A stretch of DNA of 32,685 bases from an uncultured Gammaproteobacteria bacterium (GTDB taxonomy: Bacteria > Patescibacteriota > Patescibacteriia > Patescibacteriales > XYC2-FULL-47-12), in NCBI GenBank assembly GCA_964413295.1, contig CAYPRN010000003.1, positions 1 to 32,685 on the forward strand. Direction: 5' to 3'. Made by a program: the position numbers and the translations under genes. Shown here one piece after another: positions 5,068 through 32,286 of the stretch; positions within the stretch are counted from its first letter, which is position 1, and each line of letters starts with the position of its first letter. The notes under the pieces were generated by a model. That model was given only the letters and a program-made list of their open reading frames with translations, was not told where the DNA came from and ran no database searches.

Positions 5068-5146
5068 CCCCACAAATCTACAAATCAACTACAAATAATA
5101 CAAATAGCTATTCGTGATATTTGTAGCTGATTTGTAGATTCGTGGG
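5068..5146. repeat. intercistronic word-hairpin (CAAATCTA family)
   Basis: CCCACAAATCTACAAATCAACTACAAATA ... TATTTGTAGCTGATTTGTAGATTCGTGGG. Near-perfect inverted repeat about 10 nt upstream of the MFS start. Confidence 0.65.
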
Positions 5147-9525: not shown

Positions 9526-10398
9526 CTAAAGCACGTCCATCTGTTTCTTCATCTCAGGCAATCTCTGATTTTCTGGATTAATTGTCTTCATTATTTTATA
9601 AGCATCTAAAGCGTCTGCCTTATCCTTAATTAGTATACTTAAATTAAACATTGCGTCAAGGTACTTAGGATTTTTAGGTTCAATTTTTAGCGCTTGCTTA
9701 ATTGCTTTCATTGCTTCTTTATTGTCACCTGAAGATTGATAGATTTCTGCTAAATTTAAATAATTTTTTCCATTTTCATTATTTAACTGAATAGAACGTA
9801 AATAATATTCTTTAGATTTCTTTAAATTCCCCTTATCTTTAGTAATATCCGCCAAATTACCATAAACTTCAGCGTCTTCTTCGGTAAGTTTTAGAACATG
9901 TTCTAAAGTTGATTTTGCTTCTTCAGTTTTATCTATTTCTAAATATAATAATCCCAACTTCTTGAAAGCTTCAATATTTTTACTATCTAAACTTATTATT
10001 TTAATATAGCATTTTTCTGCTTCTTCATAAGCTTCTTTACGTTTGAATTCTTCAGCGGATGAAAAAAAATCATCAAGTTCATCTACACTTCCTTGTTTAA
10101 TATCAGAAGTGCGCGCATAATGTTCCTTTAAATTAATTAATTTATCATACGCTTGTTTAATATAACTACTAATCCAGTTAGTAACTGGTTTTATAAAACG
10201 TTGGATTGACACCCGCCCACGATTTAAATTTCGTTTTAGTCGATTATGAATAATCTGCTGTTTAACACGTTTTTCTTTTTCTTGAGGAATAGACTCAACA
10301 TCCAAGCTTACTACTGCTGGAAATTTTTTACTTACTATATAAATAATAACTCCGCCGGAAATTAATATTAAAATAAGAGGAATAATATTGTATAACAT
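9526..10398 (-). CDS. TPR repeat protein with N-terminal membrane anchor
   Basis: 290 aa. N-terminal TM helix, then several 34-aa TPR-like units (AEKCYIKIISLDSKNIEAFKKLGLLYLE, etc.). Confidence 0.7.
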   Translation of the reverse strand: MLYNIIPLILILISGGVIIYIVSKKFPAVVSLDVESIPQEKEKRVKQQIIHNRLKRNLNRGRVSIQRFIKPVTNWISSYIKQAYDKLINLKEHYARTSDIKQGSVDELDDFFSSAEEFKRKEAYEEAEKCYIKIISLDSKNIEAFKKLGLLYLEIDKTEEAKSTLEHVLKLTEEDAEVYGNLADITKDKGNLKKSKEYYLRSIQLNNENGKNYLNLAEIYQSSGDNKEAMKAIKQALKIEPKNPKYLDAMFNLSILIKDKADALDAYKIMKTINPENQRLPEMKKQMDVL

Positions 10399-17438: not shown

Positions 17439-17512
17439 GCGCAACACATAACATAAGAGCACATAACGCTAAATAATGGCATGTTATGCGTTACACGTTA
17501 TGCGTTATGTGT
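17439..17512. repeat. intercistronic word-hairpin (CATAACGC family)
   Basis: GCGCAACACATAACATAAGAGCACATAACGC-loop-GCATGTTATGCGTTACACGTTATGCGTTATGTGT. Same family as 20324..20400. Both lie about 10 nt upstream of a start codon. Confidence 0.65.
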
Positions 17513-17644
17513 ATATGTATTATACCCTAATTACCTATCTTAAGCAAAACCATTGACTTATTTTTAAAGTCATAATAACATTAGAGCTAATCCCGAGAGT
17601 TCGGGACTGTTTTTTAAAATTCCACAATCAATGGAGGATTGATT

Positions 17645-17848
17645 ATGAAGAAATTACTGATTATCACATTGTTAGTCTTAATATGCTTAATTATCATTCC
17701 AGAGATATTGAACACGGATGAGGCTAAAATTTCATCTAATCATAAAGATGAAAATTCGCCAAAAACTCCAAAGAAAAACGAATTTCCTTTGGCTACCATA
17801 CCAGTAGTACCAGAAATACCTAGACTAGATGGAAAAGAAAAATATTGA
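17645..17848 (+). CDS. small membrane-anchored/secreted protein
   Basis: 67 aa starting at ATG 17645, preceded by GGAGG at 7-nt spacing. N-terminal hydrophobic helix, then a polar Pro/Lys-rich tail. Confidence 0.45.
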   Translation: MKKLLIITLLVLICLIIIPEILNTDEAKISSNHKDENSPKTPKKNEFPLATIPVVPEIPRLDGKEKY

Positions 17849-17873
17849 CTTGTGGAAAAAATTTAGTTAAAAT
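17845..17873 (+). promoter_or_regulatory. near-consensus sigma70-like promoter
   Basis: TTGACT-17 nt-TAAAAT. It overlaps the stop codon of the preceding small gene. Confidence 0.55.
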
Positions 17874-18044
17874 AAAGACAGATAGTTCCTTACAACTAGT
17901 ATATTTACGCTACAAAAATTATGCTTCATTCTGCTTGAGAAAGGAGAATAGGAAGTTAAAGTATTTTTTCACAAGCATAAAGCGTAAACATGCTGGTATA
18001 TTCGACGACACATTCGATATTTGTGAAAGCACAGGAGAAAAATC

Positions 18045-18095
18045 ATGCCCACACATGGACCCCCCTCCGACAGTTTTTCAGTGATCGATTCCTAG
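18045..18095 (+). CDS. micro-ORF 1 (16 aa, MPTHGPPSDSFSVIDS), speculative
   Basis: AGGAGAAAAATCATG is a perfect SD plus spacer plus ATG. Confidence 0.25.
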   Translation: MPTHGPPSDSFSVIDS

Positions 18096-18394
18096 GCCGA
18101 ATGGCGGTGTGAACAATCATGCAACTAAATCTAAATGCTGTAAGTGGGGTTGCCCTAAGAGATGTTGCGGTATTGTAACACAATTCCATAACACCGAGGG
18201 AACCCTAACTAAAAACATATTTTTCGAGAATAGAAATTAATAGGAAAAGATTAGTCGGAAAAAACAGGTCAGACCCTAAAACTACAAGGGTGCCTGAAAA
18301 AATTAAAATTCCGCTGTCTTAAATTCTGCTAATTTCTGTTCACCTTGGTTATAACCCTCCGGAGATATTTCCCCTAAGAATAAGGAGAAAAATC

Positions 18395-18445
18395 ATGATA
18401 CGTGGTTCCCCTTTTACGAGCTTTTCGCTCTCTACGCTACGGTGA
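18395..18445 (+). CDS. micro-ORF 2 (16 aa, MIRGSPFTSFSLSTLR), speculative
   Basis: Same 14-nt SD/start module. The peptide aligns with micro-ORF 1 over xGxPxxSFS. Confidence 0.25.
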   Translation: MIRGSPFTSFSLSTLR

Positions 18446-18794
18446 TGATACTGTACTGATACTGTATAATTTTTCAACGGGATTTATGATCTTTTCGTAA
18501 AATCTAAATTCTGTTCACGAAAAATTCTAACATCGAGGTTAAAAATGCAACTGAAATATCCCAATTCCATGGTCATCTCTGCTTAAAACACTACATAGCA
18601 AGATGACCGGCAAAGATTATAGACATGCCTACGAATTCGCTGAATGCCAAAAAGGAGTAATTTCATACTACGAACAGGAAGATACGTAAAGGGAGATGGT
18701 TGAGAGGGGTGGTGACACTCCCTTAAACGCGAATAAAATTTCGCCCAGAAAATCGTGGCCAGAAAACCTCAAGATGAAAACTGGGAGAAAAATC

Positions 18795-18971
18795 ATGAAT
18801 CGAAAGTTCACTGATCGGACCGCTCGCGGAAGCCCGTCTTTGGCTTCCGCCGTCGTCCTCCAAAAAGAAAACGGTTCAACAACCGAAAACACTTCCACGT
18901 CCGGTGTCGTCGCCATTACTATAGATGGGATGACCGGTTTCGGGATCGACAAGAGAACCACCTACGTCTAA
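18795..18971 (+). CDS. small ORF 3 (58 aa from MNRKFTDRTARGSP...), speculative
   Basis: Same 14-nt SD/start module. It is the in-frame 3' part of track ORF 18696..18971. About 50% GC, and an antisense ORF of similar length is also open. Confidence 0.3.
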   Translation: MNRKFTDRTARGSPSLASAVVLQKENGSTTENTSTSGVVAITIDGMTGFGIDKRTTYV

Positions 18972-19014
18972 AAAAGATCAGACGAGGTCTAATCCCGTCA
19001 AGGAAGTACCACAA

Positions 19015-19053
19015 GGGGGCAACTTGCTAAAACTGCAAGCTCTGCCCCTTTTT
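19015..19053 (+). terminator. strong intrinsic terminator
   Basis: GGGGCAACTTGC-TAAAACT-GCAAGCTCTGCCCC followed by T5. Confidence 0.7.
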
Positions 19054-19066
19054 AATTTTCTACCTA

Positions 19067-19151
19067 CTGTCATTGCGAGCCGTAGGCGAAGCAATCCCGT
19101 GAGAAATATTGAAATATTCACGAGATCGTGTCGCTTCGCTCGCGATGACAG
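19067..19151. repeat. GTCATTGCGAG...CGCGATGAC palindromic repeat
   Basis: CTGTCATTGCGAGCCGTAGGCGAAGCAATCCCGTGAG...CACGAGATCGTGTCGCTTCGCTCGCGATGACAG. Confidence 0.75.
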
Positions 19152-19227
19152 TGAACCACAAAAGAACGCTTTACAACGTTCTTTTTTTATTTATTATTTT
19201 ATTATTCTAGAAAAAATCCATTCCTTT

Positions 19228-19326
19228 TGTCATTCCGGGCGTAGTGAAGCGAAGACCCGGAATCCAGAAAATATATATAAAAAAACAAATTTTTATTTCT
19301 GGATTCCCGCTTTCGCGGGAATGACA
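19228..19326. repeat. GTCATTCCGGG...CGGGAATGAC palindromic repeat
   Basis: TGTCATTCCGGGCGTAGTGAAGCGAAGACCCGGAATCCAGAAA...TTTCTGGATTCCCGCTTTCGCGGGAATGACA. Track ORFs 19024..19350 and 19202..19411 are translations of these repeats. Confidence 0.75.
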
Positions 19327-19379
19327 ATAAAGCATAGAACAGTAGTGTAAAACAAAAAAATTTAGAAATGACAGTTAAT

Positions 19380-28112: not shown

Positions 28113-28915
28113 TTAGCTATTTTTATACTCTAAAGGCAATCTTTGTTTTAAATCTTTATTAACAAAAATATTAAATTTTTTATTACGAAACCCTTCAGTA
28201 AAATTTTTAACTCCTAAATTTTCTTTAATAAATTTAACTAATTCCTTCTTATTTTTATCTCCCTTATTAATAATGTTAGTTGCCATTTTTAAATCATAAT
28301 TAATTGCCCCAATAAAAAGATCAACAACCTGCAATAAATCATTTCCTCTTGAATCAAATCGGCATACTCCGATCATAACTAAGCGTCTAGCATTTCTATT
28401 AATTGTATTTTTTACTCCAACCTCATAATAAACATTTTTTGGAGTTGTTACGTGGTCAGCTAATAATATTAAAATCTCATTAGGACTTAAGGCTGATTCA
28501 GCTAAACGAATTGAAATTTCTTCATAAGCTGTCCACGGATTACCATTAAATTCTCTTTGAAAATAATTACCATGTTTGTCTACTGTATAAGAATAAAACC
28601 ATATACTTTTAGTATCCAAAAAAGCATCAATAGCAAATTTAGCAAAATCAATATTACGCCTAGATAATTTATTAAATTTCATTTCATCATGAAAATTTCT
28701 CTTATTTCTCTCATAAACTAATTTGCTATACAAATAATATGGTTTTGGCTACATTTAATTAAATCTACCGTGAAAAATGGAGCAGTTTTTGGATCTAAAC
28801 TCCCACTTTCATCAAAAAAACAAAACTTAGTCCAAATTTTATTATATTCTTTCAATTTCAGCTCTCCTGTTGAATCTACATTATCATGATCTTTATTTTT
28901 TCTTTTAAAAAACAT
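28113..28915 (-). pseudogene. DUF3800 family protein, split by a frameshift at an A4 run
   Basis: Track ORFs 28718..28915 (FFDESGS motif) and 28113..28733 (HDEMKF, LLQVVDLFIGAI motifs) are the N- and C-terminal parts of one DUF3800-type protein. The frames overlap at 28734..28748 around CCAAAACC. Confidence 0.65.
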
Positions 28916-29048: not shown

Positions 29049-29315
29049 TCACCAAAAAATAACTAAAATATCCCCACCAAATTCTGGTTTCACCTCACTA
29101 TCAGAACAAAAGAATCTGTTTTTTATTTCTTCGGCCACTTCTTCTGATTTCACAACTCCTGTAATAATGACTGATCCGTTTTTATAATTTTTTACCGGAG
29201 TTCTACATCCAAATTCATTAAAAGCCACTTCTACTTCCATAATATAATCGCAACTCGCCACTTGCCCGTTGTCAGGATTTCTTACTTCAACTGTTACTTT
29301 TGTTTTTTTGCTCAT
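29049..29315 (-). CDS. small protein, island paralogue C (88 aa), function unknown
   Basis: Strong SD (AAAGGAGAAAGAACATG). Its N-terminus KVTVEVRNP resembles EVSVEFVERP of ORF 30456..30830. Its C-terminus LVIFW resembles CVFWP of ORF 29643..29903. Confidence 0.55.
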   Translation of the reverse strand: MSKKTKVTVEVRNPDNGQVASCDYIMEVEVAFNEFGCRTPVKNYKNGSVIITGVVKSEEVAEEIKNRFFCSDSEVKPEFGGDILVIFW

Positions 29316-29375
29316 GTTCTTTCTCCTTTACCCCGTGCCTTTCTTAAAAGGCTGGGTTGACTTAAATTAAAGAAC

Positions 29376-29411
29376 AAAAAAAACTGGCTCCCGCCGTTAA
29401 GCGGAAGCCAG
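29376..29411 (-). terminator. attenuator terminator (regions 3:4)
   Basis: The RNA reads CUGGCUUCCGC-UUAACG-GCGGGAGCCAG (11 bp) followed by U8, between the leader peptide and ORF 29049..29315. Confidence 0.65.
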
Positions 29412-29437
29412 TCTTGTTTCCCTAATGATGTTTTACT

Positions 29438-29539
29438 TTATTTTTGTGGCAAAACACCACCAAAACCTACACTTCCGCTTTTGCGGAAACCATAAAACCC
29501 AAAAAAGTTAAATGTAGATTTTGCTAGTGTCTTATTCAT
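29438..29539 (-). CDS. candidate leader peptide, 33 aa, Phe-rich (MNKTLAKSTFNFFGFYGFRKSGSVGFGGVLPQK)
   Basis: Hand-translated ORF starting about 4-11 nt after the -10 box, so possibly leaderless. Five Phe and one Tyr within codons 10-18. It overlaps the region 1:2 hairpin. Confidence 0.4.
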   Translation of the reverse strand: MNKTLAKSTFNFFGFYGFRKSGSVGFGGVLPQK

Positions 29540-29542
29540 ACC

Positions 29543-29591
29543 TGTGGATATATTAACATATATTTTTAAAAAGCGCAAGAGGTTATCCACA
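29543..29591 (-). promoter_or_regulatory. promoter bracketed by an inverted repeat of DnaA-box-like 8-mers
   Basis: Minus strand reads TTGCGC-17 nt-TAATAT (29578..29550). TGTGGATA (29543..29550) and TATCCACA (29584..29591) flank it. Confidence 0.5.
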
Positions 29592-29636
29592 AAAAAGAAA
29601 ATAGCCGTTTTTTCAATAGAAAATAACGGCTATTTT
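29591..29636 (-). terminator. intrinsic terminator after ORF 29643..29903
   Basis: The RNA reads AAAUAGCCGUU-loop-AACGGCUAUUU followed by UCUUUUUU. Confidence 0.6.
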
Positions 29637-29642
29637 AATAAA

Positions 29643-29903
29643 CTAAAGTACATGATTAAATCTTTTTGGCCAAAACACACAATCTGCTATTTCCACTTCT
29701 TCAGGATCAAGACCTAACGCTATAATAGCGCCATTAATCGCTTTCTTTTTTGCTATTTCTTCATCTTCATCAACGGCGCTACCGCTACATGACTCTTTTT
29801 TGCCTTCAGGACTAACAACCACACCAACTCTCCATTGTTCTCCATCAGGTCTAATATTACCATCTGTAATTCTCACTACTGTTTTCTCTTCAATAGCGCT
29901 CAT
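29643..29903 (-). CDS. small protein, island paralogue B (86 aa), function unknown
   Basis: Start set at MSAIEEK (29903), which has GGAGGTG at 5-nt spacing. The longer track version would translate the 33-nt palindrome. Shares the SGxx..A.K.AI.GA motif with ORF 30456..30830. Confidence 0.6.
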   Translation of the reverse strand: MSAIEEKTVVRITDGNIRPDGEQWRVGVVVSPEGKKESCSGSAVDEDEEIAKKKAINGAIIALGLDPEEVEIADCVFWPKRFNHVL

Positions 29904-29934
29904 AATTTCACCTCCGTTTGTTTGATTATTTTTT

Positions 29935-29967
29935 CTTGTCCGATAAGCAAATTGCTTATCGGACAAG
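29935..29967. repeat. 33-nt palindrome, copy 2 (31 nt upstream of the paralogue B start)
   Basis: CTTGTCCGATAAGCAAATTGCTTATCGGACAAG, with perfect 15-bp arms. Confidence 0.85.
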
Positions 29968-30032
29968 CTGACCTACTATCCTTGAAGTACCATTAATTCC
30001 TGTACCGCGCCAGTCAATTTTTTTCCCGTCTT

Positions 30033-30218
30033 TCACATGCACAAAATCAGGCCATTCAAAATTTGATCCGCCTTTTTTGATTCAACTAAAAACTTTATTC
30101 CCGGCGCGTTCAGCCCTTGCGCATATTCTTCAGCAGTAGATAAATTAGGAAATGTAGCCTGTAAAAAAGCCTCACTTGACTTTGAAGTAACTCTATAAAC
30201 AGCTGTAGGATGTCCCAT
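30033..30218 (-). CDS. small hypothetical protein (61 aa)
   Basis: Strong SD (AAAGGAGAAGAAAAATG). Third gene of the three-gene operon. Confidence 0.45.
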   Translation of the reverse strand: MGHPTAVYRVTSKSSEAFLQATFPNLSTAEEYAQGLNAPGIKFLVESKKADQILNGLILCM

Positions 30219-30232
30219 TTTTCTTCTCCTTT

Positions 30233-30454
30233 CTAAGAAGAAATAATAGTGAAAGGATCAATATTTCTTACAATGGCAGGTATTATTCTTTTCTGCAAGT
30301 CCTTAAGGTGAAATTGTAGTGATTCTCTTTTCCCTGAAGCAATTTTTTTTTGCGACAGCTTTTCTTCTATCGCTGTCGCCTGATCGCAACAACGTAGATA
30401 CTTGTCATACAAAACATCTGAACCGTTTAATCCTGATTCTTTATTTGCGCTCAT
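30233..30454 (-). CDS. small helical hypothetical protein (73 aa)
   Basis: Strong SD (AAGGAGAAATAAAATG). Its start lies 1 nt after the stop of the upstream ORF, which suggests translational coupling. Confidence 0.5.
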   Translation of the reverse strand: MSANKESGLNGSDVLYDKYLRCCDQATAIEEKLSQKKIASGKRESLQFHLKDLQKRIIPAIVRNIDPFTIISS

Positions 30455-30455
30455 T

Positions 30456-30830
30456 TTATTTCTCCTTCTTGCCCCGTCCTTTCGTGAGAGGCGAGGTTTT
30501 GGTTAGCTTTTTACAAATTTTATCAATGCCGCCATTTAAACGCTTACTTCCATGCCCATTCTTTGAGAAAGAAAACTTAATGTCACAAAAGTCTTTTTTA
30601 CCTATCAAACTTAATGCCCCTGCGATCGCATCCTTTAATGCCTGCTGAACATCTTTTCCTTCTCCACTCCACCGCACCTTAAAACTCCTTTTTTCAGAAA
30701 TTAATTTAACGCAAATATTCACATTGACAGTTTGACTGCCTCTTTTTACACTTCCGTTTCTACTGATAACCTTTTCAAAAAAAGGCCTTTCTACAAACTC
30801 TACACTTACTTCATTTTTCTCATCTGACAT
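30456..30830 (-). CDS. small protein, island paralogue A (124 aa) with basic C-terminal tail
   Basis: Strong SD (GAGGGAGGACGAACATCATG). Contains WSGEGKDVQQALKDAIAGALSLIG and the tail KKLTKTSPLTKGRGKKEK. Confidence 0.6.
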   Translation of the reverse strand: MSDEKNEVSVEFVERPFFEKVISRNGSVKRGSQTVNVNICVKLISEKRSFKVRWSGEGKDVQQALKDAIAGALSLIGKKDFCDIKFSFSKNGHGSKRLNGGIDKICKKLTKTSPLTKGRGKKEK

Positions 30831-30862: not shown

Positions 30863-30895
30863 CTTGTTCGATAAGCAATTTGCTTGTCGGACAAG
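30863..30895. repeat. 33-nt palindrome, copy 3 (32 nt upstream of the paralogue A start)
   Basis: CTTGTTCGATAAGCAATTTGCTTGTCGGACAAG. Confidence 0.85.
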
Positions 30896-32201: not shown

Positions 32202-32204
32202 ATT

Positions 32205-32286
32205 GTTTAGTTGCTTAGTTGCTTAGTTGCTTAGTTATTTTAATCACACAAACTATGTAACTGATTAACTAAGTAACTGATTAACT
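32205..32286. repeat. intercistronic word-hairpin (TTAGTTG/TTAGTTA family)
   Basis: GTTTAGTTGCTTAGTTGCTTAGTTGCTTAGTTA-loop-AACTATGTAACTGATTAACTAAGTAACTGATTAACT. Confidence 0.65.

Follow-up and report, generated by a model that had tools for sequence, protein, structure and literature searches.

A conserved leader with an aromatic codon run and alternative RNA pairings in Patescibacteria: a candidate transcription attenuator

Can a bacterium with a reduced genome monitor its amino-acid supply through a ribosome moving along a leader peptide? The question is raised by contig CAYPRN010000003.1 (assembly GCA_964413295.1), of which we analysed a stretch of 32,685 nucleotides (nt), here called the window. 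On its minus strand, between positions 29591 and 29376, a promoter-like sequence, a short open reading frame (ORF) crowded with phenylalanine codons and a series of alternative RNA pairings ending in an intrinsic terminator lie upstream of a gene for an 88-residue protein. Leader-peptide attenuation is a textbook mechanism, but nearly all known cases come from free-living phyla and precede genes for amino-acid biosynthesis or for aminoacyl-tRNA synthetases. The gene content of the window includes the housekeeping genes aspS, recO, map, adk, tpiA, fba, scpAB and ndk, and its closest relatives in protein searches are metagenome-assembled genomes of Candidatus Falkowbacteria, which identifies it as a chromosomal locus of a member of the Patescibacteria (candidate phyla radiation). 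These bacteria are obligately host- or community-dependent, with reduced genomes that hold very few known regulators, lack most amino-acid biosynthesis and are unable to make phenylalanine.

An earlier interpretation made from the letters alone (the sequence-only reading) had seen a classical attenuator here. Its observation stands in all coordinates and elements, and the element is a conserved cis-regulatory leader. Sequence comparison and folding models make it probable, with moderate confidence on our part, that the leader is a ribosome-mediated transcription attenuator reading phenylalanine or, more broadly, aromatic codons. As such it would probably define a new family of attenuators that work through the ribosome, none being known in this lineage and gene context.

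Elements of the leader and their conservation

Our comparison set consists of the window and loci L003, L097, L098 and L100 (five species), together with one diverged paralogue in L098, giving six copies. The elements of the window copy are as follows.

29573–29578, minus strand: −35-like hexamer TTGCGC; CTTGC is invariant in the five species
29550–29558, minus strand: extended −10 sequence TGtTAATAT (TAATAT at 29555–29550); TGwTAA is conserved in the five species
29438–29539, minus strand: leader ORF of 33 codons plus stop (ATG at 29539, stop at 29440–29438), encoding MNKTLAKSTFNFFGFYGFRKSGSVGFGGVLPQK, with no Shine-Dalgarno sequence
29513–29534, minus strand: 5′ strand of a long-range helix (ORF codons 3–9), from the RNAalifold consensus, with four compensatory pairs
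29486–29512, minus strand: putative regulatory codon run, codons 10–18 (F N F F G F Y G F), a conserved aromatic run in an unpaired interior loop
29471–29490, minus strand: hairpin 1:2, GTTTCCGC-AAAA-GCGGAAGT
29483–29489, minus strand: region 1, UUUCCGC, 5′ arm of hairpin 1:2, pairing with region 2
29472–29478, minus strand: region 2, GCGGAAG, with regions 1 and 3 as alternative partners
29450–29471, minus strand: 3′ strand of the long-range helix (codons 24–30); the same bases form the 5′ arm of helix P3 in the predicted antiterminator state
29424–29436, minus strand: 3′ arm of P3, the inner helix of the predicted composite antiterminator, pairing with 29449–29461
29399–29407, minus strand: region 3, CUUCCGCUU, in the 5′ arm and loop of the terminator, complementary to region 2
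29376–29415, minus strand: intrinsic terminator (3:4), 16 base pairs (bp) over 29415–29380, then U8 to 29376

The sequence-only reading had proposed the promoter TTGCGC-17-TAATAT, a Phe/Tyr-rich ORF of 33 codons from ATG 29539 with its run at codons 10–18, a 1:2 hairpin across an AAAA loop, a 9-nt complementarity between region 2 and the terminator, and a terminator followed by U8; each is present where it was placed. It had also asked for the energies of the three alternative helices, which are −9.0 kcal/mol for hairpin 1:2, −16.7 kcal/mol for the 2:3 duplex (AAGCGGAAG with CUUCCGCUU, nine Watson-Crick pairs plus one G-U) and −26.0 kcal/mol for the terminator. All three pairings of its 1:2/2:3/3:4 scheme hold, but the scheme had missed the conserved long-range helix between codons 3–9 and 24–30, which in our models acts as an additional anti-antiterminator. 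The 2:3 pairing is likewise real, but the antiterminator itself appears to be a composite of 2:3 and the inner helix P3.

The simplest account of such an arrangement would be chance, with promoter-proximal hairpins and a terminator arising in an AT-rich genome around an incidental ORF of U-rich codons. Spurious short ORFs are abundant, and phenylalanine density alone is not rare: four of the 235 short ORFs in the window have at least five Phe codons in nine. Among 5000 dinucleotide-shuffled leaders, however, only 13 matched the 5′ half of the terminator over 9 or more Watson-Crick nt (P = 0.0026). Comparison with the sister species (L001–L005) shows a leader that is ~96% identical, against ~80% for the flanking genes and 50–60% for other spacers. 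We set this two-species comparison aside as evidence in its own right, since the two leaders differ by six substitutions and these closest species share other islands of 95–99% identity, so that the identity of the pair says little.

More distant copies were reached by an exhaustive HMMER search with the 88-residue protein followed by a profile search, after which the contigs were fetched and searched with the leader using nhmmer. The leader was found in every locus encoding a member of the 88-residue family, namely L003, L097 (3495–3712, E 7e-34), L098 (800–1018, E 1e-37) and L100 (2959–3175, E 2e-34). The neighbourhood is syntenic (response regulator, ndk, small genes, adk, map, ruvX, recO, aspS). 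In the L097 organism, Adk shares only 49% and Ndk only 44% identity with the window's protein, which marks such hosts as distant lineages; despite this distance, the ORF part of the leader is ~69% identical in nucleotides across the homologues. A profile of the five leaders detected a second, strongly diverged copy in L098 at ~1970–2150 (27.9 bits, E 1e-6), with the ORF MNTHSQNFAFNHLTKNFGAGVNFFFSFFCLRGSAIFCDG, region 2 GCGGGAG and a terminator AACUUCCGC...GCGGAAGUU followed by a U tract. This paralogue precedes an unrelated 78-residue gene with a strong GGAGGG Shine-Dalgarno sequence.

The sequence-only reading had suggested looking for co-conservation of the Phe run with the 2:3 and 3:4 pairings, and the result was positive in the five species and the paralogue; the outcome that would have spoken against it, hairpins kept while the ORF or the Phe run is lost, was seen in none of the six copies. 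Further copies were sought more widely. Two pattern scans of viral collections gave none, a mixed-pattern scan of Joint Genome Institute metagenomes recovered only the two species already known, and a genome scan using the neighbouring Na/Ca exchanger returned distant phyla only, among the matches listed. One nhmmer match, in L010, lies inside the nrdD coding region and was rejected as chance.

RNAalifold on the five sequences returned a 21-bp long-range helix (29534–29513 with 29471–29450), which encloses the aromatic codons and hairpin 1:2, along with that hairpin and the terminator. In this combined structure 95% of alignment cells are paired, compared with 41–55% in slid controls, and seven pairs carry changes in both partners, where shuffles average 2.9±1.2 and none of the 500 reaches seven. 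The terminator has three compensatory pairs across species, and its outer stem shows G-C to A-U exchanges. Covariation from five sequences is suggestive and not proof. Region 2 is invariant in four of the five species, the first L098 copy being register-shifted (GGCGGAAAG) and still able to pair with region 3, while region 3 (CUUCCGC) is invariant in all six copies even as the outer terminator pairs covary. Near-invariance of regions 2 and 3 beside a covarying outer stem fits segments that are obliged to pair with two partners. For P3, 88% of alignment cells are paired, compared with 41–51% in slid controls.

Given an element conserved in hosts whose Adk and Ndk are only 44–49% identical, covariation, the improbable 2:3 complementarity and a paralogue with the same architecture, we regard chance as a very improbable explanation. 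What goes beyond chance is the combination of features and their conservation, not the Phe run alone.

The leader ORF and the proposed switch

The ORF is open in all six copies, with 32–34 codons in the species and 39 in the paralogue. The same ATG is used in the five species (TATG is invariant), and the frame relative to region 2 is identical in all six copies. Length changes inside the ORF are limited to one 3-nt indel and one compensated −1/+1 pair (L098), and indels of 1–2 nt occur only in the 2–4-nt 5′ untranslated region (UTR) and beyond the stop codon. The alternative frames contain two or three stops each in nearly every sequence, apart from one frame with a single stop in L097, L098 and L100. 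Gene callers annotated the leader ORF in L098 (34 residues). The peptide had been described as running about ten codons beyond region 2, and the stop codon indeed lies ~30 nt past it.

Codons 10–19 read as follows in the six copies.

Window: FNFFGFYGF
L003: SNFFGFYGF
L097: FFFSFYFSGF
L098: FWFGFYFYGF
L100: KFYSFWFYSF
L098 paralogue: NFFFSFF

These codons hold five to eight F, Y or W residues per species, with four to six Phe and one to three Tyr or Trp within 9–10 codons in the five species. The run had been read as one of Phe codons. Phe does dominate, and the paralogue is nearly pure Phe (FFFSFF), but Tyr and Trp are interspersed in some species, making it an aromatic run. It lies just 5′ of region 1 in all six copies, and TTT/TTC and TAT/TAC are exchanged among species. 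As the run sits in the unpaired interior loop of the long helix, base pairing does not explain its conservation.

Based on these elements, we propose the following switch. The conserved promoter would start a transcript, predicted to begin at about A29543, with its AUG 2–4 nt from the 5′ end. With no ribosome present, the first ~95 nt would fold into the long helix enclosing the unpaired aromatic run and hairpin 1:2; region 2 would be sequestered, the 3:4 terminator would form and transcription would stop at the U tract. A ribosome slowed or stalled on the Phe/Tyr/Trp codons would instead cover the 5′ strand of the long helix and region 1, so that 2:3 could pair and the freed 3′ strand could pair downstream as P3, giving the composite antiterminator and letting RNA polymerase read into the operon. 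An unimpeded ribosome would cover region 2, and 1:2 would re-form behind it, leading again to termination. The signal read in this way may be the supply of Phe or other aromatic aminoacyl-tRNA, or the general rate of translation.

The folding models are compatible with such a switch. For a transcript ending just before region 4, 2:3 nested around P3 is the minimum-free-energy (MFE) structure in four of the five species, and in the window the same structure (−39.5 kcal/mol) is within 1 kcal/mol of the MFE (−40.5). The full-length MFE includes the terminator in four of the five species. A ribosome was simulated by masking a 28-nt footprint at successive A-site codons, and in all six copies this gave the antiterminator for A-site codons ~3–17 and none for ~17/18–28. 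The aromatic run thus occupies the last antiterminator-permissive positions, at the 3′ end of the permissive zone. The leader combines a maintained short 5′-proximal ORF, a placed codon cluster and mutually exclusive 1:2, 2:3 and 3:4 pairings with a terminator, three of the features by which attenuators of this class are recognised.

A number of observations weigh against this reading. Retention of the open frame in all lineages under random substitutions on the inferred tree has P≈0.07, which is modest support. The variable columns are spread evenly over the codon positions (15/15/15), and pN/pS is 0.6–1.3 for distant pairs, leaving frame maintenance and the aromatic run as the support for coding. 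As a coding test dN/dS is uninformative for this element, since its synonymous sites are under constraint from RNA structure. The Phe codons are mixed with Tyr and Trp codons, and searches with the downstream proteins detected nothing that would tie them to phenylalanine. Two copies, L003 and the paralogue, have as their full-length MFE a 1:4/2:3 cruciform that lacks the terminator, and some models return 2:3 for the last codons. With the stop codon ~30 nt past region 2, a terminating ribosome leaves region 2 uncovered, unlike in trpL. The antiterminator shows no covariation, because its bases never vary.

Initiation is a further difficulty. The ORF has no Shine-Dalgarno sequence and its AUG is likely not exactly at the 5′ end: the gap from −10 to ATG is 8–10 nt at the leader and 6 nt in the three clearest leaderless candidates of the window. 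These are minus-strand genes starting at 5088, 8358 and 12160, where the start codon follows a good −10 hexamer at a distance of exactly 6 nt, which suggests leaderless mRNAs. The missing Shine-Dalgarno sequence weighs less because 27 of the 35 window genes also have none. The eight with a GGAG-type sequence include five small genes of the 29049–30830 cluster. With only eight of 35 genes so equipped and three that look leaderless, we dropped the argument that a missing Shine-Dalgarno sequence means an untranslated ORF.

The same observations could be turned into a case for a ribosome-independent riboregulator, that is, a bistable leader switched by a protein, small ligand or RNA acting at its 5′ third or U-rich loop, or a terminated ~165-nt RNA acting in trans as a small RNA, with the ORF incidental. 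The RNA structure is strongly supported (folding of the whole leader transcript against shuffles, z = −6.8; covariation), the peptide shows no codon periodicity and a pN/pS of ~1, there is no Shine-Dalgarno sequence, and any agent that masks nt ~5–60 yields the antiterminator in the models. Trans action is known for terminated attenuator RNAs (rnTrpL, PMC6614838). Such a riboregulator leaves unexplained, however, why six frames stay open with 1–2-nt indels confined outside the ORF, and why aromatic codons are kept in an unpaired loop through TTT/TTC, TAT/TAC and TGG changes and a 3-nt indel. The RNA also matches no Rfam family and lacks the multi-helix junction that ligand aptamers typically have. 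We therefore consider it unlikely.

Alternatively, the ORF might simply be a small-protein gene, whose basic, aromatic, Gly-rich peptide of 32–39 residues is the product of a monocistronic mRNA, with the downstream gene expressed separately or by leak-through. Conservation of the ORF in six copies, its annotation by gene callers in L098, the strong terminator directly after it and the preservation of aromatic character rather than strict Phe identity would all suit a functional peptide. A pN/pS of ~1 would not, and, aromatic run aside, the residues that are conserved all fall where the RNA is paired (the long helix, region 1 and region 2). A small-protein gene also leaves the complementarity of region 2 to the terminator 5′ arm (P = 0.003) and the conserved antiterminator unexplained; in the window the stretch from the terminator to the next gene shows no promoter, and the peptides match no Pfam family. 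This explanation seems to us quite unlikely, somewhat more so than a riboregulator, although a dual function as attenuator and stable peptide is possible. The peptide sequence itself is not visibly under selection, a pattern that would be predicted for a leader ORF in which translation and its position are what matter.

The downstream operon and comparison with known attenuators

The proposed attenuator would act on the following feature and on any genes that lie between it and the terminator.

29049–29326, minus strand: GGAG Shine-Dalgarno sequence (29326–29323) and the 88-residue gene (29049–29315), the conserved downstream gene

In the window the ATG of this gene lies 60 nt past the terminator and its U8, and no promoter-like site is seen between the terminator and the Shine-Dalgarno sequence, in agreement with the sequence-only reading. 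That reading had treated the 88-residue gene as the regulated unit. The gene is indeed the constant member, but the unit would be an operon rather than a single gene, with zero to two other genes in between: the leader is directly adjacent in the window and L003, while one or two small genes intervene in L097, L098 and L100. The spacer from terminator to gene is 31 nt in L003 and 90–285 nt in L097, L098 and L100. Relative to L003, the window has a 29-nt insertion (29333–29361) between the terminator and the Shine-Dalgarno sequence, which carries a small hairpin, GCCTTT-TAAG-AAAGGC. A tRNA-Pro(GGG) gene lies just 3′ of the 88-residue family gene in L097 (4394–4465) and L100 (4400–4471), and L098 has a partial tRNA at its end; it may be that the island of variable small genes adjoins a tRNA gene.

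The family is narrow. Word-based protein searches found two clusters at 90% identity each for the 88-residue protein and for its 87-residue neighbour, one besides the window's own (the sister species), and exhaustive HMMER added three remote relatives of the 88-residue protein, 35–42% identical. This makes only five 90%-identity clusters among ~15 billion proteins, and all five carry the leader upstream. A GCR motif is invariant in the family (29049–29315 and homologues P0005–P0007), which has no Pfam or Protein Data Bank (PDB) sequence match. An AlphaFold (AF2) model from the five sequences has a mean confidence (pLDDT) of 87 and a beta-alpha-beta-beta-alpha-beta topology; with two sequences only, the pLDDT was 42 and the model useless. 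The best Foldseek matches in the PDB are PII-like SbtB/GlnK and ACT domains, and they are weak (template modelling score ~0.6, E ~4e-3, none at E≤0.001). It is reasonable to guess, but no more than a guess, that the protein binds a small ligand and acts as a regulator. On the strength of this fold prediction, the leader would stand not before an amino-acid biosynthesis gene but before a small signalling-type protein.

No known RNA family accounts for the leader. An Rfam scan at gathering and relaxed thresholds assigned it to none. The window's leader strand scores 18.1 bits against Phe_leader (RF01859), whose gathering score is 55; L097, L098 and L100 gave no leader-strand match to that family, the sole match (30 bits) being on the opposite strand. 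A match to ctRNA_p42d (27 bits) reflects terminator resemblance only and was rejected. TRAP-, PyrR-, ANTAR- and T-box-type systems were set aside on inspection of the sequence, which shows no visible sign of the repeats or loops that define them. Within the full-text collection that we searched, no attenuator is described in Patescibacteria or the candidate phyla radiation.

The closest architectural parallels are the enterobacterial pheA and pheST leaders (pheL, pheM), which likewise have a promoter-proximal short ORF with dense Phe codons 5′ of region 1 and alternative 1:2, 2:3 and 3:4 pairings; in them, too, the structural gene is preceded by an intrinsic terminator. As pheST illustrates, such leaders can control genes that are not biosynthetic. 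We find no homology in sequence or structure. The ORF here has 32–39 codons, compared with 14–15, and continues ~10 codons past region 2; it also has an extra covarying long-range helix, interspersed Tyr and Trp codons and no Shine-Dalgarno sequence, and its target is a predicted PII/ACT-like small protein in a lineage without phenylalanine biosynthesis. The Phe-leader architecture is that reported for pheL (PMC3082878).

The trp, his, leu, thr and ilv leader-peptide attenuators of Proteobacteria and Actinobacteria (e.g. PMC1262725, PMC2965389) share the principle that ribosome position on regulatory codons selects antiterminator or terminator, with superattenuation when translation is absent. 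The present leader differs in phylum, in the genes regulated, in its near-leaderless start and in its composite antiterminator (2:3 plus P3). Its length is not exceptional, the ilvL/ivbL leader peptide having 32 residues.

For the start of the ORF, the nearest precedent is found in mycobacteria, where leaderless polycysteine short ORFs on truly leaderless mRNAs are described in a preprint (bioRxiv 10.1101/834739) as Cys-responsive attenuators of operonic expression. Those ORFs, as described there, resemble ours in being regulatory first cistrons at or next to the 5′ end, without a Shine-Dalgarno sequence and enriched in one codon class; here there is a strong terminator with an explicit antiterminator, and the AUG probably lies 2–4 nt in. 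In the Sinorhizobium trpL/rnTrpL/peTrpL system (PMC6614838, PMC7298713) the terminated leader RNA and the peptide may have functions of their own, which bears on the small-RNA and small-protein alternatives. It has no homology to the leader studied here, and a trans role is described there only.

If the attenuator reading is correct, reduced Patescibacteria genomes would still follow their amino-acid supply by way of the ribosome. A conserved protein family whose function is unknown and whose fold is predicted to be PII/ACT-like would gain a link to a physiological signal, stress from aromatic amino acids or from translation. Attenuators would also be known in a broader range of architectures, given the additional covarying anti-antiterminator helix and an ORF start that has no Shine-Dalgarno sequence. 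The leader is compact (~165 nt) and defined by its sequence, and it lends itself to tests in vitro or in a heterologous host although the bacteria that carry it are uncultivated.

The promoter and its surroundings

Around the leader promoter three further features were noted.

29583–29591, minus strand: left arm of an inverted repeat, TGTGGATAA, matching the DnaA-box consensus TTATCCACA at 9/9 on the plus strand, just 5′ of the −35
29543–29551, minus strand: right arm of the inverted repeat, ATATCCACA, matching the DnaA box at 8/9 and overlapping the −10 and the predicted start site
29598–29636, minus strand: intrinsic terminator of the upstream 87-residue gene, an inverted repeat followed by a T run

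The hexamers TTGCGC and TAATAT are 17 nt apart, and a preceding TG-n makes the −10 an extended one. A consensus scan did not flag this promoter, whose fit is weak (3/6 and 4/6 matches); it is credible because it is conserved in five species, not because it matches the consensus. The terminator of the upstream 87-residue gene is placed where it would insulate the leader promoter from upstream transcription.

The promoter is bracketed by the inverted repeat TGTGGAyAA ... (A/T)TATCCACA, which is missing from the L098 paralogue. In the left arm TGTGGAyAA is conserved in all five species, and in the right arm TATCCACA is invariant in them, with a 9/9 match to the DnaA box in L097. DnaA boxes across the window are present at chance level (9 against 9.4 expected), so that the noteworthy part is their paired, conserved placement at the leader promoter. 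The repeat may be an operator for DnaA or another regulator. A possible parallel is the E. coli his operon, where DnaA-dependent attenuation has been described with boxes proposed to act in the leader RNA (PMC10989985); DnaA-box-like motifs there also accompany a leader-peptide attenuator, whereas here they are DNA sites bracketing the promoter, and we treat the likeness as a lead only.

Taken further, Patescibacteria might read aromatic aminoacyl-tRNA supply through a family of near-leaderless attenuators with Phe/aromatic codons that switch on a PII/ACT-like signalling protein. The promoter would in addition be controlled by an operator of the DnaA-box type, two or more paralogous copies would serve different small genes in one genome, and the circuit would sense starvation in a way so far undescribed for this radiation. 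We offer this extended picture tentatively, and in its entirety it is doubtful.

The leader lies within a cluster of small genes of unknown function, flanked on one side by ndk and a response-regulator gene and on the other by two Na/Ca-exchanger genes. Several other observations were made there and elsewhere in the window. Two stretches, 30222–30461 (a 73-residue gene) and 28400–28705, are islands of 91–99% nucleotide identity to the sister species in a region otherwise ~80% identical, a pattern that points to mosaic conservation or recent exchange inside the small-gene cluster. The ~1.9 kb at 17483–19379 contain no ORF longer than ~100 residues on either strand and no Rfam match at the gathering threshold. 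At 28113–28915, adjacent same-strand ORFs of 65 and 206 residues, neither with a Pfam match, overlap by 16 nt and resemble one split gene; the sister species likewise has a split pair (56 and 104 residues).

A 33-nt palindrome, CTTGTCCGATAAGCAA-A-TTGCTTATCGGACAAG, occurs in two copies that are 94% alike, at 29935–29967 (perfect) and 30863–30895 (two mismatches). Each lies 30–45 nt 5′ of the start of a small-gene operon (the 87-residue gene and the 124/73/61-residue genes, respectively), and the element could be an operator or a 5′-UTR hairpin; the copy at 29935 is apparently deleted in L003. Finally, short tandem repeats of the type AACTAAG / CTAAGCAAC are present at 32203–32234 and 32251–32282, and such repeats stand immediately 5′ of the starts at 10398, 13422, 23757 and 32201. 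The start codons behind them have no Shine-Dalgarno sequence, and the repeats may be an alternative 5′-UTR or translation-initiation element.

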